A DNA stretch of 64,000 nt from Escherichia phage V18, in the sequence record NC_041937.1; one strand, given 5' to 3'. Positions within the stretch are counted from its first letter, which is position 1. Every line of letters starts with the position of its first letter. Below the pieces are notes generated by a model that worked only from the letters and a program-made list of their open reading frames with translations, had not been told where the DNA came from and did not search any database. A program made the translations under genes and the position numbers. Of this stretch, positions 5,598 through 63,263 are shown in pieces.

Positions 5598-6266
5598 TTA
5601 GATAGCTCCTGCGATAATCAGTGCCCCGTACCAAGTTAACCCGTTGTCGTAGGTTTCCAACTTGAAAATATCTGTTGCACCAGCTGTAAATGTTAGGATA
5701 GGATCTCTTCCGTAGGACCATTTAACATTATCAGGCCAATAGACTTTGTTGCCGCCAGAGGTCTGAGTAATGCATACGGTTATAGTTCTCGCCACCCCTT
5801 CAAGACCTTCTGCTTGATTTTCAAAAGAGATTGTGGTATTTGAAGTTAGTCGAACCTTAAAGGTATCCGCAACTTCAAGATCCATATCAAGCTGACCACC
5901 GATAGATCCGTAATCAACTATTCTGCCAGAAGAAGTTGCAGCAAGCTCACCAAAAACAGACCAGGCATTTGCAGACACACCCCCAGCACCCTCTACAGTG
6001 GAGTCTGGGAGGATTATTTTAGGATAATCCCCGTTCCACGTGTAGTAGCGCTTAGTCTCTGGGTCATAAGCAAAGTCCTTCTTGCTCTTAAGATAACCAC
6101 CCTCTGTGAAATAGACTATCTTAGTGATACTAAGATCGTTGACAACATCGTCAATCTTAGCCTTTCTTGTCCCATCAGTCTGGTTGACAACCAAGAAGTC
6201 ATCACTCAGGACTGTTTCTGCATCTTCAAGATCTGGAATTGGTATTGTAGGATAAGCTACAGCCAT
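5598..6266 (-). CDS. tail fibre/tailspike N-terminal anchor-domain protein
   Basis: 222 aa; N-terminus DDFLVVNQTDGTRKAKIDDVV ... FTEGGYL ... DFAY is paralogous to the N-terminus of ORF 1164-2963. Confidence 0.55.
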   Translation of the reverse strand: MAVAYPTIPIPDLEDAETVLSDDFLVVNQTDGTRKAKIDDVVNDLSITKIVYFTEGGYLKSKKDFAYDPETKRYYTWNGDYPKIILPDSTVEGAGGVSANAWSVFGELAATSSGRIVDYGSIGGQLDMDLEVADTFKVRLTSNTTISFENQAEGLEGVARTITVCITQTSGGNKVYWPDNVKWSYGRDPILTFTAGATDIFKLETYDNGLTWYGALIIAGAI

Positions 6267-10059: not shown

Positions 10060-11559
10060 TTACCAAAGGTCGGTAGACATGAAGTTGATATCTTTGCTGT
10101 TCTCCCACTCAAGTTTTGCATCAAGTATTTTGCTAAACTCACCCTCATCTATGGAAAGCGTGATTTTCCCATCACTGATCTCTAAAGGTAGCATTTCCAT
10201 AGTTCTTAATTGAGAAGCAAAACCAGGGCCACCTGGCAACGGAAGAGTCCCGCCCGGCAAAGTGTCCAAAGGATTAACAAACCCGTTACCTCCCGATATG
10301 ATATCTTTGCGAATCATATCGCTGATAGTATCCAGTTGCTGATTTCTTTCACTCAGTGGGTTGAAACGGTCATTAAATAATTCCCCGGCGCTTAATATTG
10401 TACCGATAATGCCCAGCTTGCCGAGCAGACCAACTTTACCACCAGGTGTCTTGAGGCCACCTCCACCTTTTCCTGCCGCGCCACCACTACTAGATCCTTC
10501 TGCAGTAGCGGCACCCGCTGCTCCAGCTGCACCCCTTAGAGAGTTAAGGAATTTAAAGGTTTTTACAAGCATAGATGCCATGACAAAACCTTTTGTTAGG
10601 GCGTTGACTACCAGCATGATGGCAGCAGCAAACCCTGCCCATTTAGCATAGCTAAAGGTGTCATGAAGCTCTTCAGAATATTCCTTCGTCTTAGCTGTTA
10701 TGAATCCCCATTTAATCCCCCATTCAAGGAAAAACATGCGGATCTTGACTATAGTGTTGTTTAGTTCACCAACTACCCAGTTAAGGCCTCTCACAAACCC
10801 ACTAACAAAATCACCAGAGGCATCCCACACAAATTGCAGAGTCTCACCAGTGCGGATTAATGTATAATAGAACTCTGTTAGTTCGTCAGACCAACGGGTG
10901 AACAGTTTCTGACGAGTCAGTTCGATGAAGGTTTTCAGTCTGTTTTCTGCCAGCACGTTAGACTTCTGCATTCTTTCATAACCAGCTGCAGATGCCTCGT
11001 TCATGTACTTAGCCACATACTTCATGATCTTGGCTGTTTTAACCTCACCTTTCTTCATCATGTCCATGAACTGATCCATGGATAGTTCAGAAAGACCAAA
11101 AGCCTCTTTAGTGGCCTTGATAAAAGGTTCGTATGCACCAGGCAAGGCTTCAGCAAGTTGTTGCTTCAGTTCTTCGGACATTACTTGTCCCTTGCCAAGC
11201 ATCTGTTGGATTGCCATAATACCGCGCTGGTATTTTACCTCATCAGCACCATAAGCAGCAGCATACTGGGAGTATGCAGAAAACAGCTCATGCACTTCCT
11301 GATTTGTCATCTGGTTTTTGGCGTTTACCGACATCTGGGCGTAACCTTGAAGACCAGATTTGAGATCAAAACCAAGACGCATAGCCTCTTGCTGGACAAA
11401 CGCAACCTCACTGTTGGCTTTGTTTGGATCTCCAGTAACAGCAGTAAGAGCAGCACTTGCCCCCTCCATCATGTGACCGGATCTGTTAACCGCAGCAAAT
11501 CCAGAAAAAGCTGTATACGCAGCTGTTGCATTAATAACAGATCTACGTAAGTCTCTCAT
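10060..11559 (-). CDS. tape measure protein
   Basis: 499 aa; long helical protein with hydrophobic segment and Gly-rich stretch (GAAGAAGAATAEGSSSGGAAGKGGGG); sits after tube and chaperone genes. Confidence 0.65.
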   Translation of the reverse strand: MRDLRRSVINATAAYTAFSGFAAVNRSGHMMEGASAALTAVTGDPNKANSEVAFVQQEAMRLGFDLKSGLQGYAQMSVNAKNQMTNQEVHELFSAYSQYAAAYGADEVKYQRGIMAIQQMLGKGQVMSEELKQQLAEALPGAYEPFIKATKEAFGLSELSMDQFMDMMKKGEVKTAKIMKYVAKYMNEASAAGYERMQKSNVLAENRLKTFIELTRQKLFTRWSDELTEFYYTLIRTGETLQFVWDASGDFVSGFVRGLNWVVGELNNTIVKIRMFFLEWGIKWGFITAKTKEYSEELHDTFSYAKWAGFAAAIMLVVNALTKGFVMASMLVKTFKFLNSLRGAAGAAGAATAEGSSSGGAAGKGGGGLKTPGGKVGLLGKLGIIGTILSAGELFNDRFNPLSERNQQLDTISDMIRKDIISGGNGFVNPLDTLPGGTLPLPGGPGFASQLRTMEMLPLEISDGKITLSIDEGEFSKILDAKLEWENSKDINFMSTDLW

Positions 11560-12395
11560 GCATCGCCTAGTGTAAGCGTTTGGCTGGTGGCACTTTTAAA
11601 TCCAGACTGCAGTGCTGACAGGTGGGCGTTAAAGGTTGACTTTTTCATCTCCCCGCGAGCAAACCTGGACTCTAACTCTGAGTATCCTGGCAAGCTTCCA
11701 CGGAATCCGGCCCCATACTTGGCAGAAAGTCTTATCGCGGAGTTGTAGAGGTGGGTTCTTCTTGCCTCACGATCCGACATAAGCCTATTATCCATACCAG
11801 CTTTACCGTCCCTTCTTAGCTGTCTATGATAACGATTCATAGCAGCTGTCTGAGCTTTTACAAGATTAGGGTCGGAAGCCACACCACCCATATTAGGGTT
11901 ACCGGGGATATATTTGAAAGCTTTGGCATTAGCCAGAACTCTTGCCTTAGGTGCCTTATAACCGCCGTAAGACACTGGTGCAGATTTGGCAGCCTTTTTG
12001 GCCTCTTTAGCTTGCTGCTGGTAGAACTTACGCATCCTAGCCATTTCTGGATTTTTAGCGGTAAGATTACCTACAGCTTGTTTACGTCTCGCATTCTCCC
12101 TACGTTCTATTGCAGCCCTTACTGCAGCCTCTTTCTTGGCCTGTGCTACGCTCTCCCTGTGCAGCTTAGCATTTGCCTGAGATTGCTGTCTGGCAACCCG
12201 CTGCATTGTCTGCTGGGTTTTAACAGCTACCGCCTGCCATCTACTCATGGGGTTGGCTGAGTTAAAATCCTCACCTAGTTTCCTGAACTCCCTCCCAATA
12301 CTGCGAATTTTCTCTACAGCTTTTTTGTAGGAGGAGTTCTCTATCTCAAAGCCAATCTTGTTGACTGTTGTGGCAACTATTTTGTTTGTAGCCAT
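11556..12395 (-). CDS. tape-measure-associated basic coiled-coil protein (possibly N-terminal part of the tape measure)
   Basis: 279 aa Lys/Arg/Ala-rich helical protein; its stop overlaps the next start (ATGA). Confidence 0.5.
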   Translation of the reverse strand: MATNKIVATTVNKIGFEIENSSYKKAVEKIRSIGREFRKLGEDFNSANPMSRWQAVAVKTQQTMQRVARQQSQANAKLHRESVAQAKKEAAVRAAIERRENARRKQAVGNLTAKNPEMARMRKFYQQQAKEAKKAAKSAPVSYGGYKAPKARVLANAKAFKYIPGNPNMGGVASDPNLVKAQTAAMNRYHRQLRRDGKAGMDNRLMSDREARRTHLYNSAIRLSAKYGAGFRGSLPGYSELESRFARGEMKKSTFNAHLSALQSGFKSATSQTLTLGDA

Positions 12396-12405
12396 GGTTT
12401 CCTCA

Positions 12406-12444
12406 TAATAAAAAGGGCCAGATCCCAGAAAAGGAATCCGGCCC
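12406..12444 (-). terminator. rho-independent terminator candidate
   Basis: GC-rich imperfect hairpin (GGGCC...GGCCC) followed by TTTTTATT on minus strand. Confidence 0.4.
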
Positions 12445-12449
12445 TTAGA

Positions 12450-12698
12450 TTATCCTCTCCTGCGCTTAGCTTTCGCAGCAGCTGCGGCAGCCTTCTGCTC
12501 CCGCTCCATTTCCCTGTTTTGGACGGTATCTAGGAATTCTTCGATATCAAGATACTCACAGAGCTTCAGGAAATACGCCATATCTGCAAGATTTAGCGAT
12601 TCAAAATTTTCCCCTTTGAAATTCTTGAGCACCCTGCACCAAAGAAAGTCGAACCAGTTGAGTGAACTGTTCTTGGCTGCCCACTCACTGGCCCTCAC
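12450..12698 (-). CDS. putative tail assembly chaperone (T-like ORF)
   Basis: 82 aa ORF with GTG start, in -1 frame relative to upstream 157 aa ORF, between tube and tape measure genes. Confidence 0.4.
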   Translation of the reverse strand: MRASEWAAKNSSLNWFDFLWCRVLKNFKGENFESLNLADMAYFLKLCEYLDIEEFLDTVQNREMEREQKAAAAAAKAKRRRG

Positions 12699-54908: not shown

Positions 54909-55142
54909 ATGAAAGTTAAATTTCTTACAGATTTAGGGTACCCTTCCTTGGTTGACTGTGTTGGTAAAATTGTGGAAGCAAAACGGCTATCTGCAAACGA
55001 GAATGTTGTCCTGGTTAAAGGGAAGGATTTACTAGCTGCAGGTGCAGAGTCTGGCAGGATCTCTCCTGATTATATGTATTACCTATCTTTAAGTAATCTG
55101 CCAGAGCGAGGCGGTAAAGGCCTTGAAGTTGTGGAGGAGTGA
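54909..55142 (+). CDS. small acidic protein, MKVK...DL(L/I)AAGA paralogue family member
   Basis: 77 aa; MKVKFLTD ... DLLAAGA ... LEVVEE; paralogous to 57400-57627 and 57617-57871. Confidence 0.45.
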   Translation: MKVKFLTDLGYPSLVDCVGKIVEAKRLSANENVVLVKGKDLLAAGAESGRISPDYMYYLSLSNLPERGGKGLEVVEE

Positions 55143-55238
55143 CAGGTATGCTTCTGATTAACTGGGAAGACCTCTATGGGCCTTTATGGGAAAAGAGCAT
55201 GTATTTAAAATGGTGCGTTAATTTAGGGAGGCCTTCCA

Positions 55239-55358
55239 GTGTTTCAAGCCATGTTTATTGAGATGCTATCTGGGGTATTGTTACTGGTAGCCATCTTAGG
55301 TGGTGCAGTTCTGATGTATAACTATCTTGAAAAAGGAGACAGCAATGGTAAAAAATAA
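55239..55358 (+). CDS. small membrane peptide (39 aa)
   Basis: GTG start after GGGAGG RBS; single transmembrane helix MLSGVLLLVAILGGAVLMY. Confidence 0.25.
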   Translation: MFQAMFIEMLSGVLLLVAILGGAVLMYNYLEKGDSNGKK

Positions 55359-55530
55359 ATCTTTAGAGCAGGCTGAAAACCTTCTCCACGAGCTGGTAAA
55401 GGAGTGGAAAGTTGAATACTCAGATTTTAATGCACGAGAGGGTGAAGATTATTGGCCTACGGAGCGCTCAGAGGGCGAATGGTATCAAGATTTTATAGAG
55501 TGGTTATATCAGACGTGCGATGAGGGGTGA
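55327..55530 (+). CDS. hypothetical small acidic protein
   Basis: 67 aa ORF. Confidence 0.35.
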   Translation: MKKETAMVKNKSLEQAENLLHELVKEWKVEYSDFNAREGEDYWPTERSEGEWYQDFIEWLYQTCDEG

Positions 55531-55991
55531 CGATGTTTGTTAAATATGTAAAAACGTGCCTCAACAGTCTTGGCAGAGAGCATTGGTACACCTTGCTTGA
55601 AAAAGGGGAAATTTTAACAAAATCTGGAAAGATAACTTTTATACATAGTAAAGGTAAAGACCCGTCACGACTTGTTATAGATGATTACGTTACAGGTGTG
55701 ACGTTCGAGGTCTCTGTGGAGAGGTTAATACGCAGAGCTGGCGGCCCTTATGACCGAAGAGAGTATGTTTTCGATTCCGTTACAGAGATGGGGGAGCATC
55801 CGTCTTTAATGTTCAGGATGGTAATCAGAGATATGAGGTCATCTATAGATAGGATTGTAAAGGACATTAAGGAACCTTTTAGAGTAAAAGTTAAGAAGTT
55901 TTTCGATTCTAAGATTAACATACTCGCCGTTGCACTAGGTGTAGTTCAACTTCTGTTAATTTTGCACTATTTTGAACTACTATTTAAGTAG
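55527..55991 (+). CDS. hypothetical protein with C-terminal hydrophobic segment
   Basis: 154 aa ORF; C-terminal ILAVALGVVQLLLILHYF. Confidence 0.4.
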   Translation: MTMFVKYVKTCLNSLGREHWYTLLEKGEILTKSGKITFIHSKGKDPSRLVIDDYVTGVTFEVSVERLIRRAGGPYDRREYVFDSVTEMGEHPSLMFRMVIRDMRSSIDRIVKDIKEPFRVKVKKFFDSKINILAVALGVVQLLLILHYFELLFK

Positions 55992-56053
55992 TAGTTGAGA
56001 TATGGCACAAAGGATGTGCCATAGTGAAATAAACTAAGAAAGAGGTAGAGAGA

Positions 56054-56401
56054 ATGCCAAAGATTAAAACGTTATTACTGTGGGTAACTGTTTTAGCTTT
56101 TATAGGGTACTGGACTTGGGAAACTGAATTAAAAGATATAGGATATACCAGTCTTGAGAGCAAGGCGTGCATTGGCATAACCGATGCGTTCAGGCAAAAT
56201 GCTATGGATCACGAATGTGTTGATGCAGATATAGATGAGAAACTGTCTAAGGACAAAGATTTTTACCATGGGCATGCTTTACTTGATAGTGGTGACACTG
56301 TAGAGTTCTGGTCGTGGTTTCGTGAAGATGGAACAATAAAAACAGCAGTAAAGATCTCTAACAAAGAGTTAATGCTGTTGCAGCAAAAGGAGGCTCAATG
56401 A
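56054..56401 (+). CDS. hypothetical protein with N-terminal signal/transmembrane segment
   Basis: 115 aa; N-terminus LLLWVTVLAFIGYWTW. Confidence 0.4.
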   Translation: MPKIKTLLLWVTVLAFIGYWTWETELKDIGYTSLESKACIGITDAFRQNAMDHECVDADIDEKLSKDKDFYHGHALLDSGDTVEFWSWFREDGTIKTAVKISNKELMLLQQKEAQ

Positions 56402-56685
56402 TCTGGATATCCTATGCTGATGGCACCATGCTGTATACTGCAGGTACCAGATATGAAGTTCAGGAGAACGATAAAAAATTTATCGTAAAAACATTTGACA
56501 AGGACGACAACCTTTTGCTAGAATTGACTTACAAGGTTGGAGAGGTATCCAATATCCAATTGGATTGTGGTCATAAAGATAACCCACTCAAAAAACCTGG
56601 AATAGGCAAGGCTTCAGAAGAACGTTTGTCTCGTATTGCAGAAAGCGTTTCTACACAAAAATCTAAGAAGGGGACTAGAAAATGA
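56398..56685 (+). CDS. hypothetical protein
   Basis: 95 aa ORF coupled to upstream gene. Confidence 0.4.
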   Translation: MIWISYADGTMLYTAGTRYEVQENDKKFIVKTFDKDDNLLLELTYKVGEVSNIQLDCGHKDNPLKKPGIGKASEERLSRIAESVSTQKSKKGTRK

Positions 56686-56750
56686 AAAACTTACGTTTTA
56701 ACACTGGCGCAATGGAAGAAGCAATATTCTAAACCAGGCGGGAGGGTTTT

Positions 56751-56936
56751 ATGAAGCACTATTGCCTGTCTGGTAGAATGGGTACAGATTGTGATTGGGT
56801 TTTCTTAAAACTTGTCAGCATTCGAGAGTTCATCCCAGAGGAAGAGCAAGAAAGCGAGCTGATGTCATGGATCAACCATTACGGTAACACTTTTCGGCAT
56901 GTTAAGGTAGAAGAGTTGCCAAGCGAGGCTGATTGA
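56751..56936 (+). CDS. hypothetical small protein
   Basis: 61 aa ORF. Confidence 0.35.
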   Translation: MKHYCLSGRMGTDCDWVFLKLVSIREFIPEEEQESELMSWINHYGNTFRHVKVEELPSEAD

Positions 56937-56938
56937 CT

Positions 56939-57028
56939 ATGATTGCATCAATATTAACGTTTATGGGTGGCGTGGCATTCGGATTCATTGTTTGCCTGTT
57001 TATAGTGATTATGTCTATGCGAGGCTGA
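56939..57028 (+). CDS. small membrane peptide (29 aa)
   Basis: MIASILTFMGGVAFGFIVCLFIVIMSMRG; coupled between flanking ORFs. Confidence 0.25.
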   Translation: MIASILTFMGGVAFGFIVCLFIVIMSMRG

Positions 57029-57031
57029 ATT

Positions 57032-57403
57032 ATGAAACTTTTTGAGTGGTTTAAAAAGTTTAAATATAAAGCTGTAGCCATCGTGCCGTGGTCAATTCAG
57101 TGGGTTGATGAAGGTGGTCTACCAATACCTGGTGACAAAGATACTGGGTACTGGATTATGATGGAGAACGGGTTTGGAAAGCGAAAGTATACGTGCACAA
57201 ACTCTACTCGATCTGCCACTAACTGGTCTAAATTCTACTGGGGAGCCAACGAGTGGGGAAGATACGCCACCAAATCAATGGCACTTATTGGTATAGCAGA
57301 GTACATTGCAGCCAGAGATAGGGTTGGAGACACTTATTACTATACTGCGGACGATATTCGTAACAGTGTTTACGTCCCACAACCACCTGATGGAGACCGT
57401 TGA
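57032..57403 (+). CDS. hypothetical protein
   Basis: 123 aa ORF. Confidence 0.4.
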   Translation: MKLFEWFKKFKYKAVAIVPWSIQWVDEGGLPIPGDKDTGYWIMMENGFGKRKYTCTNSTRSATNWSKFYWGANEWGRYATKSMALIGIAEYIAARDRVGDTYYYTADDIRNSVYVPQPPDGDR

Positions 57404-57627
57404 TGAAAGTTAAAGTTTTAGATTCAAGCTTCTATATTGGTCAGGAGCCCTTAGTGGGGAAAGTGTTTACTGCTGTCCCTAACGAAGATTACCCCGACCT
57501 TTTAAAAATAAAAGGGGCAGATCTTATTGCCGCTGGTGCATCTCATGAATGCTTTGACAGTCAGTGGACCTACAACTTTGCCCTAGGTGAGGATGTAGAG
57601 ATAGTGGAGGACGATCATGAAGGTTAA
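57400..57627 (+). CDS. small acidic protein, MKVK...DLIAAGA paralogue family member
   Basis: 75 aa; MKVKVLDSSFYIGQ ... GADLIAAGA ... EIVEDDHEG. Confidence 0.45.
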   Translation: MMKVKVLDSSFYIGQEPLVGKVFTAVPNEDYPDLLKIKGADLIAAGASHECFDSQWTYNFALGEDVEIVEDDHEG

Positions 57628-57871
57628 AATTCTTGATTCTAACGTCTACTTGGGACAATCCTTCCTGAAGGGAAAGGTAGTTCCTGCGGTATACTTTGAA
57701 GGGTTGCCGTGGGATGATCCTGTGCGGCAACATCACAGTTATGTAGGCCACAACGTAGTGTTTATCTTAGGATCAGACCTGATCGCTGCTGGTGCACCGG
57801 AATATTATTTCGGGGAAGAATCCTATTATGCCTTTGGGGCAGGGTCAGATGCAGATATTGTAGAGCTGTGA
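57617..57871 (+). CDS. small acidic protein, MKVK...DLIAAGA paralogue family member
   Basis: 84 aa; MKVKILDSNVYLGQ ... GSDLIAAGA ... DIVEL. Confidence 0.45.
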   Translation: MKVKILDSNVYLGQSFLKGKVVPAVYFEGLPWDDPVRQHHSYVGHNVVFILGSDLIAAGAPEYYFGEESYYAFGAGSDADIVEL

Positions 57872-57883
57872 TGGGTAACCGTT

Positions 57884-58279
57884 GTGAAAAATAAACTGTT
57901 CAAAGTTACAATGAAAATTCGCGGAGCTTGGAGCGTAAAGCAAGGGCGTATCCCAGAATTTGAGAAAGACTTCTACGTAGTCTCCACCTCGGAGGAGGCT
58001 GCATGCTGGCAGGCTGGCTATGCCTATGCAAGAACCTGGTACGAAGGATACCAGACTGGGGGCTATGACGGAGAAATTATCAGCAAGGGTGTGGAAGAAA
58101 TTAATGTGTTGACAAGTAAAAATTTTGTTATAGTGCATCCAGATTCCAGAGTGAAGCATTACTGGAATGCCAGAACAAAAACTTGGACACCGTTTGCAGA
58201 TTCTGCTACACCACTTTTAAACCAAAAAGCTCTTGACTCTGCCCCGAGCTACGGGGTTGTTGAAGAAAAGCTAGACTGA
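57884..58279 (+). CDS. hypothetical protein, paralogue of 60089-60484
   Basis: Shared C-terminal segment (V/M)(V/R)HP.S ... YW ... WTP with ORF 60089-60484. Confidence 0.4.
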   Translation: MKNKLFKVTMKIRGAWSVKQGRIPEFEKDFYVVSTSEEAACWQAGYAYARTWYEGYQTGGYDGEIISKGVEEINVLTSKNFVIVHPDSRVKHYWNARTKTWTPFADSATPLLNQKALDSAPSYGVVEEKLD

Positions 58280-58296
58280 AACAGTGAGGTGCCACT

Positions 58297-58587
58297 ATGA
58301 TGGATTTAGTTCTGAATATTGATAACGCAGGGGAGTTTAAAGACGATGGTGTAACAAGCATTGACCAACCATGCTCTGCCAAGATTGACTCAAAATGGGC
58401 CTACAAGTTTGACGGAGAGATCTTCGCAAATGATGAGAAGGTTGTAGATGCTGCAGCCATTTTGAACGCTCTAGGGTACGACCCTGTGAATTCTTTGATC
58501 AAGGATCCTGTTGAGTTTGCAGAGTATGTTCGAAAAATGGCAGATCTTGCTGTAGATATTTTAGATACTATCGATAATAAGCTGTAA
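58297..58587 (+). CDS. hypothetical acidic protein
   Basis: 96 aa ORF. Confidence 0.4.
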   Translation: MMDLVLNIDNAGEFKDDGVTSIDQPCSAKIDSKWAYKFDGEIFANDEKVVDAAAILNALGYDPVNSLIKDPVEFAEYVRKMADLAVDILDTIDNKL

Positions 58588-58593
58588 AAACTG

Positions 58594-58622
58594 TTGACAC
58601 AACGCTTCAGATTTAGTATCAT
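58594..58622 (+). promoter_or_regulatory. sigma70-like promoter upstream of HPF-like gene
   Basis: TGTTGACA-N17-TATCAT. Confidence 0.5.
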
Positions 58623-58671
58623 TGTTTTCAAAGAGAGATAGTTATTCCCTCTTCCTTAAAAGGAACACGTT

Positions 58672-58992
58672 ATGCAAATTGAAATCACTGGCAACAATGT
58701 AGAAATCACAGAAGGTATGGTATCTTTTATTTCCCGCAAAATGTCCAAGCTGGAGCGTTTACATCCCTCTGTCAACTATGCACGTGTGAGTGTAAAAGTT
58801 GAAAATGATCACCAGGAAGTTATGGCGTTCATTTTTGACAATTCTGGAAAAGAAGTTATTGCCAAAGCTAAAGGCAGTGATGCTTACGAGGCAACTGACC
58901 GTATGGTAGATGTTGCAGCACGTCAGCTGGCTAAATGCGGTGGAAAGAAAGGTAAGGGGAAAGGCAAAGTAAAGATTGACTTTGGAGAATGA
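58672..58992 (+). CDS. ribosome hibernation promoting factor / RaiA (YfiA) family protein
   Basis: MQIEITGNNVEITEGMVSFISRKMSKLERL ... YARVSVKVE ... AKAKGSDAYEATDRMVDVAARQLAK matches short HPF/RaiA pattern; own promoter and AAGGA RBS. Confidence 0.65.
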   Translation: MQIEITGNNVEITEGMVSFISRKMSKLERLHPSVNYARVSVKVENDHQEVMAFIFDNSGKEVIAKAKGSDAYEATDRMVDVAARQLAKCGGKKGKGKGKVKIDFGE

Positions 58993-59001
58993 GGTGCTAC
59001 A

Positions 59002-59103
59002 ATGGGTGTGATTAAGAAATTAGTCACAAATGTAGAGATTGCATGCTTTGAAATTATGTTTGCAATCGCAGTTGTAGTTAATGTGTTAGGTTACGGCTAT
59101 TAA
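59002..59103 (+). CDS. small membrane peptide (33 aa)
   Basis: MGVIKKLVTNVEIACFEIMFAIAVVVNVLGYGY; GAGGTG RBS. Confidence 0.25.
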   Translation: MGVIKKLVTNVEIACFEIMFAIAVVVNVLGYGY

Positions 59104-59129
59104 TATCAAATAATTGAGGAGACCTCTAA

Positions 59130-59399
59130 ATGAAAATTAAATTATTCAAAACTGAGCTGGCAGACAAAAACTGTGGACTGGTTGAAGGCATGATTGTTGA
59201 AGCACAACCAGTGGACTATATGAAGGTGGTTCGTGATGCCCTAGGTGAAGGTTTTGATCTGATGGAGCCAGCTCTGCGAGAAGATGTTATCGAGATGGCT
59301 AAAAAGCACACACCTGAAGGTTTGGTGGTGTTTGTTGCACCGGGTAACGGAGAAGAGTTGATTGTAACTCCGGATGTGTATGAGATTGTAGAGGAATAA
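59130..59399 (+). CDS. small acidic protein ending YEIVEE (paralogue family B)
   Basis: 89 aa; MKIKLFKTE ... YEIVEE; similar architecture to 60561-60821. Confidence 0.45.
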   Translation: MKIKLFKTELADKNCGLVEGMIVEAQPVDYMKVVRDALGEGFDLMEPALREDVIEMAKKHTPEGLVVFVAPGNGEELIVTPDVYEIVEE

Positions 59400-59490
59400 T
59401 CCTGCTTGGATTAGCATACTTCCTCGATAAGGAAGATTTGTAATTATTTGTGGGAAAGGAATCCCAATCTCTTACCAGAGGTGATACTAT

Positions 59491-59670
59491 ATGATTGTTT
59501 ATTTTAAAACTTCAGGTGGATACCCTGATTCTCAAAGCTTGATCGGAAAAACGTGCACAGCATACTCACCTCTTGATGAGGAGGTAAGCGATATTCTACG
59601 AAATATGTATCGGATTGACCCCCAAGAAGCTTTGATCAAAACCTTGTATTTGTCAAGGGCTCAGATATGA
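59491..59670 (+). CDS. hypothetical small protein (59 aa)
   Basis: MIVYFKTSGGYPDSQ... ORF not in track. Confidence 0.3.
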   Translation: MIVYFKTSGGYPDSQSLIGKTCTAYSPLDEEVSDILRNMYRIDPQEALIKTLYLSRAQI

Positions 59671-59757
59671 AGTCTTTGGGAGCATTCCCTGAAGCAGATG
59701 ATGATGCCGTTTATTCGTTCATGACTCCTTTTGAAGCTATGGTTGTTGGGTGATAAT

Positions 59758-59949
59758 ATGAAAGTACGCTTTATTGGTGAAACAATTCCTGTGCATCTCC
59801 GGTCTCCTGAGGATTCTGCAGATCTTGCATCTCAAAAGGCGAGAGGTTATGATAAGAAAGTAACCTCAACCGATGTAGTGCTTGAGGCTACTAGCTACCT
59901 GACCCTGCTGCATTCTTTAATCATTATGGGTACTATTTCAGCAACCTGA
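59758..59949 (+). CDS. hypothetical small protein
   Basis: Start placed at ATG 59758 (MKVRFIGETIP) within track ORF 59731-59949. Confidence 0.35.
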   Translation: MKVRFIGETIPVHLRSPEDSADLASQKARGYDKKVTSTDVVLEATSYLTLLHSLIIMGTISAT

Positions 59950-60092
59950 TGAATATCGGTGAGCTTGTATTTATTAGTGGTGGAGAAATTGTTAGCAAGC
60001 TCGGTGGCGATCCAGATGTCTTTCATGAAACCTGTCCTTTTGCATTTGTGGTAGGTTCAGATGTGGAAGTTATTGAGGAGGTGCGGTAATGG
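59949..60092 (+). CDS. hypothetical small acidic protein (47 aa)
   Basis: MNIGELVFISGGEI ... VEVIEEVR; coupled to flanking genes. Confidence 0.3.
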
Positions 60093-60484
60093 TAAGCCTA
60101 TACCGTGTCGAGTATAGCTCGGATACTGTATACAACGTAAGAAGCAAAGATCGCAGCGACAGAGTGCAAGAAATGTATGTTCTTGCCGACAGTCCGTTAT
60201 CTGCAGCGTTCAAGGCAGGGGCTCTTGCATCTCGTTGGAAATTTGAAGGTGGATCTTTCTATGAAGAAACCCTTGAAGATTCTGTTGTTATTTCTTCTGT
60301 AGAGGTTTCAGATGACTACGAAGGGAAAAAGTTCGTAATGCGGCACCCACACAGCAATATTGCGTACTACTGGGACGTTCTGAACAACGAGTGGACCCCA
60401 GATCTTCAGAAGGCTACTGTGCTAACACCGTTTTTGGCAGATAAGTTCCCACCAGAAGGTAATTTATCTGCACTGTTTCAGTAA
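60089..60484 (+). CDS. hypothetical protein, paralogue of 57884-58279
   Basis: 131 aa; shared C-terminal HP.S ... YW ... WTP segment. Confidence 0.4.
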   Translation: MVSLYRVEYSSDTVYNVRSKDRSDRVQEMYVLADSPLSAAFKAGALASRWKFEGGSFYEETLEDSVVISSVEVSDDYEGKKFVMRHPHSNIAYYWDVLNNEWTPDLQKATVLTPFLADKFPPEGNLSALFQ

Positions 60485-60502
60485 TTTTCTTGCACACAGG
60501 TG

Positions 60503-60531
60503 TTGACAACGCCAACCCTGTGTGAAATAAT
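60503..60531 (+). promoter_or_regulatory. sigma70-like promoter
   Basis: TGTTGACA-N17-AATAAT with TGTG upstream of -10. Confidence 0.4.
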
Positions 60532-60560
60532 ACCTTCATCTTAACAAGACAGGAGACCGA

Positions 60561-60821
60561 TTGATGAAGATTAAATTGAAAAACCTTGAAACGGCAGAGA
60601 TTCAGGACGGTGTTGATTTCCGTTCTAAAGATGGTGACATCTTAGAGGTAAATATTCCAACCTACGATCTGATCAAAGGTTTTGGCAACGTCCCCGAGGA
60701 AGGTATCGCAGACGTTCTTCTAATGTTAATCGTTAGTGGGACAGTGTTCTTGGGTGAAGGTGAGAACGCTATTGCAATCCCAAGCCATTTTTATGAAGTA
60801 GTTGACGAAGAGGTGCTGTAA
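60561..60821 (+). CDS. small acidic protein ending YEVVDEEVL (paralogue family B)
   Basis: 86 aa; MKIKLKNLE ... YEVVDEE; promoter 60503-60531 upstream. Confidence 0.45.
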   Translation: MMKIKLKNLETAEIQDGVDFRSKDGDILEVNIPTYDLIKGFGNVPEEGIADVLLMLIVSGTVFLGEGENAIAIPSHFYEVVDEEVL

Positions 60822-61172
60822 ATGAAAGTAGAAATTACTGGTTTTGATGTGAATGCGGTTCCGGAAGATATTTTAGCTAAACTTCCGGAAGGTTTTGGTA
60901 ACGGTGTTGTGGTGGATGCTGTTCCTCCTACCAAAGACATTCTGCTGCAGTATGGTGTAGCAGAGGAAGATGTCGATAAAGTTCTTACAATGATGGCAAT
61001 CGATCGTGTTGTCGTTGTTAAAGGTCTCGATAATTTTGAGAGTGATCCCCTGATTATTCGTGGAGATGACTACAAAATCATCGATAATGAAGGCCAAGAG
61101 TTCTATGAACCTTGTGCAGAAGATATTCTTAACTTATTACTGGAAGCAGGCACCGAAGAGGAGGACGAATAA
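60822..61172 (+). CDS. small acidic protein
   Basis: 116 aa; MKVEITGF ... acidic C-terminus EAGTEEEDE. Confidence 0.45.
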   Translation: MKVEITGFDVNAVPEDILAKLPEGFGNGVVVDAVPPTKDILLQYGVAEEDVDKVLTMMAIDRVVVVKGLDNFESDPLIIRGDDYKIIDNEGQEFYEPCAEDILNLLLEAGTEEEDE

Positions 61173-61501
61173 TGAAGATTGACCCGTTACTGAAGGCTCG
61201 TGCAGAAAAAGCGTACACCATTAAGCTGACCACCCTGGTTCCTGCTTGTCATCCGGATGTAGGTTGGCCCGAAGGTCTGGTAGAGGGGACTGTAACAGCC
61301 GCATACCTTCCTAACATCAAATACCTTATGGAAATCTTAGAGATGGATGAGGAAACTGCAGAACAGTTCCAGTTGGATATGAAACAAAGTGGGACTTTGG
61401 TTATTCACGGGTGGTATAATACTAAAGATGCAGAAGACCCTCTGGTAACTTCTAATCTGGCATATGAAATCTTAGGGCCTTTGAACCTGGGGGAAGACTA
61501 A
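61172..61501 (+). CDS. small acidic protein
   Basis: 109 aa; ends AYEILGPLNLGED. Confidence 0.45.
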   Translation: MKIDPLLKARAEKAYTIKLTTLVPACHPDVGWPEGLVEGTVTAAYLPNIKYLMEILEMDEETAEQFQLDMKQSGTLVIHGWYNTKDAEDPLVTSNLAYEILGPLNLGED

Positions 61502-61788
61502 TGAAAGATCTGGTTAAGATTAAGATTAAAGATACCAATGGAGAACTCAGCCATTTTGGAATTAATGATGGTGACGAGCTGATCGCACACTTGCCTACCA
61601 AGGAAGTTGTAAGCAAAGCGGTTGCCGGAGAAGAAGCTGCAATGCAGGCTGCAGGTGTGGATGAAAACTATGTAGCCATGTGCATGTGCCGAGATCAGGT
61701 TGTTCTGTATAAAGCGTATCGACCAAACGGAGCCACGGAGTGGCTTGTATTCCGACCTGAAGGATATGAAATCTTAGAGGCACTATGA
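61501..61788 (+). CDS. small acidic protein
   Basis: 95 aa; ends EGYEILEAL. Confidence 0.45.
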   Translation: MKDLVKIKIKDTNGELSHFGINDGDELIAHLPTKEVVSKAVAGEEAAMQAAGVDENYVAMCMCRDQVVLYKAYRPNGATEWLVFRPEGYEILEAL

Positions 61789-61877
61789 TAAATCTTGCCA
61801 AGGTTGCAATGGTCCTGCTAATTATTTGCTGGTCAGTAACCTTAACACTGTGTCTTGTATTTCAGTAAGGTGCTTAT

Positions 61878-62075
61878 ATGAACATCCTGATGTGGGTTGT
61901 AGCAGTGGCGTTTGTTGCATGTTTTTGCTGCTGGGTTGCGGTGAGGATTTCTGTAGCTACCTTCGGAAGTTGGGGTTCTCAGAGTGGGATATTAATATCC
62001 TTTCTTTTCGCAATGAAACAATCTCAGCCGCCCTGCTCTGTAAGAAATTCAAGTGGGAACCTTGTGAGGTCATGA
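61878..62075 (+). CDS. small membrane protein (boundaries uncertain)
   Basis: N-terminal helix MNILMWVVAVAFVACFCCWVAV; overlapping ORF 61826-62140 has a plausible C-terminal half in another frame. Confidence 0.3.
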   Translation: MNILMWVVAVAFVACFCCWVAVRISVATFGSWGSQSGILISFLFAMKQSQPPCSVRNSSGNLVRS

Positions 62076-62168
62076 ACTATCTAAGAACGGGGGATATCCC
62101 TGAAAGATTTAAAAAAGTTCTTGACGGCAAGGATAAATGATAGTATAGTGACTAACAAGAGGTGAGGA

Positions 62169-62309
62169 ATGACTGATTTTACTGAAGCTTTGATGATGGC
62201 CTTGTCTGTTTTAGCGCTATCGGTATGTTTTGGGGCGTTATTCACATCTCTGGTTAAAGTTTTACATACAGTATTATTACCCAAGGAGCGCAGTAATGAC
62301 GAAGATTGA
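62169..62309 (+). CDS. small membrane protein (46 aa)
   Basis: MTDFTEALMMALSVLALSVCFGALFTSLVKVL...; GAGGTGAGGA RBS. Confidence 0.25.
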   Translation: MTDFTEALMMALSVLALSVCFGALFTSLVKVLHTVLLPKERSNDED

Positions 62310-62547
62310 CTTGAATGCTGGCGACCATGTTGTTGTCAAATGCATCGGAGATTATCTTGGATTCACAATCGGCAATACTTACGAGGCGGTAGTGTCGAAG
62401 GTTTATCATGATAAAGTCCTCAGTCTTGTATTTGACTGCGATGATGATGGGGATGACCGATACGTCTGTGAGGTGCTGGCACGAGACGATAGTGAAGACC
62501 AGAAATTCCTGGTTATTGAACTGAACGGTATTTTTGTAGAACGTTAA
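62296..62547 (+). CDS. hypothetical small protein
   Basis: Start placed at ATG 62296 (MTKIDLNAGDHVVV) with AAGGAG RBS. Confidence 0.45.
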   Translation: MTKIDLNAGDHVVVKCIGDYLGFTIGNTYEAVVSKVYHDKVLSLVFDCDDDGDDRYVCEVLARDDSEDQKFLVIELNGIFVER

Positions 62548-62575
62548 TTTAAAACAACATAAGGAGACTCTTACT

Positions 62576-62881
62576 ATGGCTAAATCTAAAGTTGAACTGT
62601 TCACCTCTCTTCCTTCTGACACTGCAGAACGTGATCGCCTTCGCAAAACAATCGAAGAACTGGTGGAACTCCAGCTTCAGATTAAAGACCTGAAAGATGC
62701 CATCAAGGATATCATTCTCGTTGAGAAGCAGGATCATCTATATTCTCCTAAATTCATCAAATCTCTGGTGGCTACAGAGTTTGATATCCGCTACGAAGCT
62801 GAAAAACGTCGCGCTAAGATTGAAGAAGAGGTTGAGCACATGTCTGAGGCAGACATTCTGTTCAAACGCTCTGTAGAATAA
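62576..62881 (+). CDS. hypothetical coiled-coil protein
   Basis: 101 aa helical protein; AAGGAGA RBS; terminator hairpin follows. Confidence 0.45.
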   Translation: MAKSKVELFTSLPSDTAERDRLRKTIEELVELQLQIKDLKDAIKDIILVEKQDHLYSPKFIKSLVATEFDIRYEAEKRRAKIEEEVEHMSEADILFKRSVE

Positions 62882-62889
62882 TGACAAAA

Positions 62890-62914
62890 AGAGGGGCCCA
62901 AGCCCCTCTTTTTA
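62890..62914 (+). terminator. rho-independent terminator
   Basis: AGAGGGGC-CCAA-GCCCCTCT hairpin followed by TTTTT. Confidence 0.55.
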
Positions 62915-62936
62915 CTATCTATGAAGGAGATTTGAG

Positions 62937-63263
62937 ATGGGTATACCGATCACTGTAAAAGAATTGAATGAACGTGATGCAGGCGGTCTATGGCCTGCAC
63001 GAAAAATACGCTGCGTCTATATGAAAGAGAATCTTGAACATCTTGATCAACAGATAAAGGTCGGCGATATTTTCGAGGTCTTCTATTCCAATCGGCGCAA
63101 CTGGGAAACCATTCAGCCTTCTGGTTTTGTTCTTGCCAAACTTGACACTGGAGAAGTGATTATCCCTGGGTTGGATATTGTCTTCGAAATTATCCAGGAG
63201 TGGGATCCGGATAAGATTAGATACGAAGAACTATTCGGTAAAGGTATTATCAAACCTGTGTGA
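62937..63263 (+). CDS. hypothetical protein
   Basis: 108 aa ORF with AAGGAGA RBS after terminator. Confidence 0.45.
   Translation: MGIPITVKELNERDAGGLWPARKIRCVYMKENLEHLDQQIKVGDIFEVFYSNRRNWETIQPSGFVLAKLDTGEVIIPGLDIVFEIIQEWDPDKIRYEELFGKGIIKPV

Follow-up and report, generated by a model that had tools for sequence, protein, structure and literature searches.

Two open reading frames (ORFs) in a 64,000-nucleotide stretch of Escherichia phage V18 (sequence record NC_041937.1; the whole stretch is called the window below) are almost certainly true paralogues, and a contribution of both to phage fitness on particular host strains is probable. ORF A (57884-58279, plus strand; 131 aa, GTG start, isoelectric point (pI) 7.8) is the orthologue of rV5 gp137 (ORF 142) and of bas54_0157, and ORF B (60089-60484, plus strand; 131 aa, ATG start, pI 4.7) is the orthologue of rV5 gp144 (ORF 149) and of bas54_0150. 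More than 110 sequenced genomes of Vequintavirus, the rV5-like Escherichia coli myoviruses with genomes of about 136 kb (e.g. pangalan, rV5_ev168 and the BASEL phages), match the region 55000-63000 with 97-98% identity. As a feature the two genes are already known, being members of one PHROG (phrog_7379) and 97-99% identical to annotated hypothetical proteins in more than 100 genomes; in the rV5 reference, rv5_gp137 and rv5_gp144 are both labelled 'hypothetical protein'. New findings are the age of the duplication, the retention of one copy or the other in relatives, the rejection of an annotation note that pointed to AcrIIA3 and the link to a previously unremarked transposon-insertion sequencing (Tn-seq) phenotype. 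No mention of paralogues, of gp137 or of gp144 was found in the rV5 genome paper (PMC3606486).

To the initial annotation the two ORFs had appeared as a two-member paralogue pair of the window with a common C-terminal block. BLASTP aligned 31 identical residues out of 112 (28%, E=1e-9), covering about 112 of the 131 residues, and the pair was recovered with E=3e-7 in an all-versus-all comparison of the 436 window ORFs of at least 40 aa. The Smith-Waterman score was 118, compared with 27.9 ± 4.7 for shuffled sequences (z=19), and none of 2000 shuffles reached 118, so that the significance of the alignment lies far above background. The C-terminal parts gave z=12. The N-terminal halves alone still gave z=4.8, with 1 of 2000 shuffles scoring as high, and the homology therefore spans the whole proteins; the shared peptide blocks are present as described, but the likeness is not confined to the C-terminal block.

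The pattern HP.S...[YW]W......W had exactly two matches in the six-frame translation of the window, at 58136-58186 in ORF A (HPDSRVKHYWNARTKTW) and at 60344-60394 in ORF B (HPHSNIAYYWDVLNNEW), both on the plus strand. The residues F, H, P, W and W of the motif are invariant in the alignment of five distinct family sequences; H, P and the two W correspond to H86, P87, W95 and W102 of B. A third copy was not found in the window, neither by the comparison of the 436 ORFs nor by the six-frame motif search, in agreement with the claim that the block was absent from other ORFs. Both proteins matched the phrog_7379 profile (131 positions) over its full length, ORF A with E 8.1e-72 (residues 2-131 on profile positions 1-131) and ORF B with E 2.1e-66 (residues 1-131 on positions 1-131), and the diverged homologues P0007 and P0008 also matched it with E of about 1e-25. 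This PHROG is the family of the two ORFs themselves, comprising rV5 gp137, gp144 and their orthologues. It carries no functional annotation, and the description of the pair as a duplicated gene of unknown function likewise stood.

Several records start ORF A at an internal ATG, resulting in a protein of 123 aa. Residues 5-8 of the longer form (LFKV), which precede this ATG, are conserved, and ORF B and the diverged homologues show LYRV, IYQI and LYKI at this site. Because these residues are conserved in B, P0007 and P0008, the longer, GTG-initiated ORF A is supported. ORF B is preceded by a strong Shine-Dalgarno sequence (GAGGAGG) 7 nt upstream, and its start overlaps the stop codon of the preceding gene as TAATG. 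In ORF A of V18, an in-frame 3-nt deletion accompanied by a substitution was observed in an A/T-rich run at about 58118-58122, relative to rV5 and Bas54, changing ...LTSEKVFVIV... of all relatives to ...LTSKNFVIV....

On a protein-guided alignment, ORF A and ORF B share 39% of their nucleotides and 27% at third positions, indicating saturation. The duplication proposed earlier is real, but ancient rather than recent. Global protein identity was 27% between A and B, 35% between A and P0008, 38% between B and P0007, 25% between A and P0007 and 24% between B and P0008. The homologue P0008 resembles A (35-37% identity), P0007 and P0014 resemble B (38-40%), and the cross-pairs reach 24-26%. An exhaustive search with a profile hidden Markov model (HMM) through 1.84 billion representative proteins yielded P0007 and P0008 as the only further full-length relatives; P0010-P0013 were also returned, but these are long repeat-rich proteins with scores summed over many short stretches and were regarded as spurious. 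A profile word search added only P0014, and two single-sequence word-indexed searches gave nothing beyond near-identical proteins or fragments.

The contigs bearing P0007, P0008 and P0014 are related to the window and syntenic with it. On the JGI contig L002, an A-like gene occupies the A slot, and both B and the ribosome hibernation factor (HPF) gene that lies between A and B in the window are missing. Contigs L003, L004, L005 and L015 carry a B-like gene only, in the B slot downstream of the hibernation-factor gene, and their A slot holds an ORF of about 100 aa that is helical and unrelated. Since each copy has its own orthologues in syntenic slots, the duplication is older than the divergence of these lineages and was followed by differential loss. 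A TnpB/OrfB_IS605 (Cas12f-like) gene was also observed inside the same accessory-gene block of L002, a JGI metagenome contig, at 11532-12644.

A tblastn search with a B-like query gave 230 places in 117 records, all of Vequintavirus, and about 113 of these 117 records keep both copies, so that the pair is conserved in related genomes. Phage EduardKellenberger (MZ501061) has B as its single family copy; of A, only residues 99-131 (the last 33 codons) remain, at 98721-98819, under an ORF annotated as 'putative glycosidase', indicating that loss of A is possible in nature. The ratio of nonsynonymous to synonymous differences (pN/pS) of ORF A was 0.1-0.27 against three relatives, and ORF B showed no nonsynonymous and 4-7 synonymous differences against three relatives; both genes are under purifying selection. 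In the syntenic 28-kb regions of a Seunavirus (LNA4) and a Mydovirus (BIS47), located via a conserved neighbour gene, no family member was found and the plausible ORFs all had E > 0.7. A match with E=0.011 in these regions was a minus-strand shadow ORF and was rejected. Judged from these searches, phrog_7379 appears confined to Vequintavirus and its nearest relatives.

A phenotype of near-identical orthologues is available from the HIDEN-SEQ preprint, in which Bas54, a 'V5-like' BASEL phage, was investigated by transposon-insertion sequencing (10.1101/2025.11.20.689424). Bas54 is phage MaxBurger (MZ501093); bas54_0150 is identical to ORF B at 130 of 131 residues and bas54_0157 to ORF A at 120 of 123, and the gene order is the same. 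On K-12, insertions were present at all 25 TA sites of bas54_0150 and at 18 of the 19 of bas54_0157, and both genes were called Non-essential (10.1101/2025.11.20.689424, supplementary file 9). When K-12 BW25113 was compared with CFE311, a uropathogenic clinical E. coli isolate, mean reads of bas54_0150 fell from 108.3 to 0.0 (log2 fold change (log2FC) -6.77, adjusted p 0) and those of bas54_0157 from 255.9 to 57.4 (log2FC -2.14, adjusted p 0) (10.1101/2025.11.20.689424). The two genes upstream of bas54_0150 were depleted to a similar extent (bas54_0151, log2FC -6.17; bas54_0152, log2FC -7.16), while 0149, 0154, 0155, 0156 and 0158 were unaffected; the hibernation-factor gene bas54_0155 was neutral on both hosts (log2FC -0.53, not significant) (10.1101/2025.11.20.689424). 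Also depleted in the same comparison were bas54_0063 and bas54_0140, for which the authors had confirmed a counter-defence role against the DS-28 system of CFE311; from this isolate only DS-28 and Gao_Tmn had been cloned (10.1101/2025.11.20.689424). The phenotype of the A and B orthologues is public but uninterpreted.

The two proteins differ in charge, A being near neutral and B acidic with a net charge of about -7. Thirteen columns are invariant across five distinct sequences, comprising Y, A, G and R in the N-terminal part and F, H, P, W, W, A, T, P and G in the C-terminal part. Aromatic residues, Gly and Pro make up most of these columns; there is a single His, a single Arg and nothing acidic, a composition that resembles a structural core more than a catalytic site. 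No Pfam family at E <= 1, no NCBIfam match and no match to PDB sequences was obtained for A or B, and none of the PADLOC-DB families matched A, B, P0007 or P0008 at E <= 1. A WW domain, considered on account of the YYW...W.P segment, was rejected, since the C-terminal segments of the five members gave no Pfam WW match and the family profile no PDB sequence match, both at E <= 10.

The AlphaFold model of B (7 sequences) had a predicted local distance difference test (pLDDT) value of 77 and a predicted template modelling score (pTM) of 0.69; the model of A (4 sequences), with a pLDDT of 62, was too weak and was not used. In the model of B, two long beta strands are followed by an 18-residue helix, another strand and then the short strands that carry the conserved motif (residues 81-85, 94-96 and 101-103). 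Foldseek revealed no significant match; the best had E 0.11 and a template modelling (TM) score of about 0.4, with eL20 on top and the RNA polymerase-binding YkzG lower. In BFVD the sole significant match was the A orthologue of phage V18, and many small uncharacterised phage proteins matched the N-terminal module weakly. The second-best match to the B model, V5KSY8 (185 aa) of Escherichia phage 4MG, had Foldseek E 0.018, probability 0.99 and TM 0.53, and might be a very remote relative in the genus Seunavirus; a counterpart of V5KSY8 was not located in the 28-kb region of the related phage LNA4. We read the predicted fold as a common small beta-beta-alpha-beta binding module with a family-specific C-terminal part, the resemblance to other proteins being at fold level only.

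Taken together, A and B go back to an ancient duplication of a single phage accessory gene. Each encodes a soluble, probably non-enzymatic protein of about 15 kDa, in which the predicted N-terminal beta-beta-alpha-beta module precedes a small C-terminal part rich in beta strands, with F-x3-H-P ... W-x6-W at its centre. The two proteins are dispensable on K-12 and would add to fitness on at least one clinical isolate, the uropathogenic CFE311, B strongly and A moderately; a need in certain host strains only is the signature of counter-defence or host-adaptation factors. We infer that each copy binds a factor that varies between host strains and neutralises or re-tunes it, a component of antiphage defence being the most probable candidate for such a factor, and the two copies would have diverged in specificity. 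Divergence and non-redundancy are suggested by the different charges, by the phenotype that each gene shows despite the presence of the other copy and by the retention of either one in relatives. We hold with roughly even confidence the interpretation of A and B as accessory proteins that have diverged, matter in particular host strains and bind a host factor or act in counter-defence. Taken by itself, defence as their target is a more tentative proposal. In its most specific form, phrog_7379 could be an unrecognised counter-defence (or host-adaptation) family limited to rV5-like phages, with a fold lacking a significant structural relative; the paralogues would neutralise different strain-specific targets, and on CFE311 B would be indispensable and A contributory against a system other than DS-28 and Gao_Tmn. 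We offer this form as a conjecture that may well prove wrong.

Several points weigh against these interpretations. The phenotype comes from a single Tn-seq comparison in a preprint, which neither mentions nor reports knockouts of 0150-0152 or 0157 (10.1101/2025.11.20.689424). The sheet with the relevant table is labelled CFE303, yet its command line names '311' files, and identical numbers appear in the CFE311 sheet; the host was taken to be CFE311 because of these file names and because 0063 and 0140 were co-depleted. In supplementary file 9 (sheets Data S6/S7), the K-12_vs_CFE303 sheet is the 311 run, and the resampling table for CFE303 is seemingly absent. Equal depletion was seen for 0151 and 0152; polarity acting on B, or a module formed by the three genes, cannot be told apart from an effect of B alone. 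A host-specific need could also reflect metabolism or receptor-independent differences between hosts rather than defence.

The genomic surroundings are consistent with expression of the two ORFs in separate transcription units. Judged by GC skew and ORF orientation, the window begins with a leftward block that ends at about 28.9 kb; beyond it lies the rightward block, rich in small ORFs, which holds both A and B. The strong sigma-70-type promoter-like site nearest upstream of A lies at 56495-56524 on the plus strand (TTGACA-18-TAGAAT, 11/12) and is, by its match to the consensus, a candidate promoter of the unit to which ORF A belongs. Two further plus-strand sites correspond to the rV5 promoters P144 (58594-58622; TTGACA-17-TATCAT, 11/12), which heads the unit from the hibernation factor to ORF B, and P150 (60503-60531; TTGACA-17-AATAAT, 11/12, with an extended -10), which is situated directly downstream of ORF B and starts the next unit. 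Since these sites coincide with P144 and P150, B is the last gene of the unit that begins at the hibernation factor, and A belongs to the preceding unit. Genes 82-163 of rV5 form one rightward transcription unit, including replication and nucleotide-metabolism genes, with host-type promoters only (PMC3606486). This arrangement suggests that A and B may be expressed before the late genes, in the early or middle phase.

The hibernation factor, a RaiA homologue encoded at 58672-58992 (plus strand) between A and B, matched Pfam Ribosomal_S30AE with E 4e-15. The two genes directly upstream of B (59491-60089, plus strand), orthologues of bas54_0152 and of bas54_0151/rV5 gp143, each carry a 1-nt deletion that shifts the reading frame, located between 59630/59631 and between 59894/59895 relative to rV5, Bas54, ev168 and pangalan. 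Both genes are intact in Bas54 but frameshifted in V18; the frameshifts reflect either real pseudogenes or sequencing errors. Over 55000-63000, the window falls about 1.2 kb short of pangalan in length. The 123-aa ORF at 57032-57403 (plus strand) matches two different PHROGs as well as two neighbouring genes of relatives, with an N-terminus resembling rV5 gp133 and a C-terminus resembling gp134, and appears to be an in-frame fusion made by an internal deletion.

A second family of small acidic paralogues is interleaved with A and B, at 54909-55142, 57400-57627, 57617-57871 and 59949-60089, all on the plus strand. These four members were recovered by an iterated HMM search with E 1e-18 to 1e-39 and follow the pattern MKVK.L...G..V.A...DLIAAGA...VEIVE. 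Further downstream, small ORFs at 60561, 60822, 61172 and 61501 have similar E-[IV]-[IV]-[DE]-E tails but were not recovered by this HMM. In the leftward block, the minus-strand ORFs 5598-6266 and 1164-2963 are alike over about 99 N-terminal residues (38% identity, E 9e-17); they probably correspond to the tail-fibre or short-tail-fibre paralogues already known from the subfamily. Eighteen records bear the name 'Campylobacter phage' and list C. jejuni as host (MG0656xx, e.g. MG065653, MG065658 and MG065690); over the region of the two ORFs they match rV5-like coliphages at about 97% identity, which suggests mislabelled hosts or contaminating coliphages.

The rV5-like phages are among the most commonly isolated coliphages of broad host range and are candidates for therapy and food safety, and most of their approximately 220 genes are uncharacterised. 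With gp137 and gp144, an ancient and selectively maintained pair with diverged properties is now tied to an unremarked, host-specific Tn-seq phenotype, turning two anonymous ORFs into the testable hypothesis of a strain-specific host-range or counter-defence determinant. If this hypothesis holds, a new family of anti-defence proteins would be added and the clinical E. coli strains killed by rV5-like phages could be better predicted; if it does not, the pair would be an ordinary duplicated ORFan.

Alternatively, A and B might be minor passengers of an accessory region, the depletion of bas54_0150 on CFE311 being a polar or cis effect within the block 0152-0151-0150 or an artefact of the assay. 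The equal and complete depletion of three contiguous genes, together with a partial, non-significant drop in the upstream gene 0153, is compatible with polarity. All 59 TA sites of the block were, however, empty on CFE311 and both flanks were unaffected, which argues against a random bottleneck, and ORF A, which belongs to another transcription unit, was independently depleted. The authors also report that insertions lying upstream of an essential gene are as a rule tolerated, which speaks against widespread polarity (10.1101/2025.11.20.689424). If polarity does explain the depletion of 0151 and 0152, B, as the last gene before P150, would be the one whose loss matters. In favour of passengers, the greater part of ORF A is missing from EduardKellenberger, diverged relatives manage with one copy, and the orthologues of 0152 and 0151 are frameshifted in the window; but both A and B are under purifying selection and both are retained in about 113 of 117 genomes. 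We consider the passenger explanation improbable, and a host-strain-specific accessory role remains the preferred interpretation.

Comparison with known systems yielded two further alternatives. A note in the rV5 annotation describes rv5_gp137 as 'similar to Listeria phage A118 NP_463491'; since NP_463491 today carries the annotation AcrIIA3, membership of A and B in this anti-CRISPR family might be concluded. With 125 aa, AcrIIA3 (A118 gp30) is near A and B in size, and BLASTP with A gave 16 identities in 42 residues at the N-terminus. The E-value of 0.034 was obtained for a single pairwise comparison over these 42 residues only, the hhalign probability with the family profile was 0.4% (E 0.16), and the matched residues differ from those conserved between the paralogues. 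To our knowledge, the E. coli hosts of rV5-like phages have no type II-A CRISPR system. After this direct test of A118 gp30 the similarity was judged not significant and the link was rejected; that A and B belong to the AcrIIA3 family is extremely unlikely. Modulation of the core host transcription or translation machinery was considered as well, by an N-terminal module resembling T7 Gp2 or YkzG (the epsilon subunit of RNA polymerase), or resembling eL20/LX on the large ribosomal subunit, possibly in concert with the phage hibernation factor. Such a role is unlikely, if somewhat less so than a passenger status. The structural matches behind it (Foldseek E >= 0.11, TM about 0.4) do not go beyond a fold-level likeness, sequence identity to eL20 (L18a/LX) of archaea and eukaryotes is 7-19%, and no Pfam match to Ribosomal_L18ae or another family was obtained. 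No eL20 counterpart was shown for the C-terminal HP/W/W part of A and B, and we know of no eL20 in bacteria. An A-like copy exists in L002 in spite of the absence of the hibernation-factor gene, and on CFE311 the hibernation-factor gene was neutral while B was fully depleted, so that the two were functionally uncoupled in that assay. T7 Gp2 is a single domain of 59-64 aa, whereas A and B have 131 aa with an extra C-terminal part and no sequence similarity to it. Gp2 is essential for T7 on K-12, and a role in host takeover would be expected to show on this host, yet the orthologues of A and B, unlike T7 Gp2, were dispensable there.

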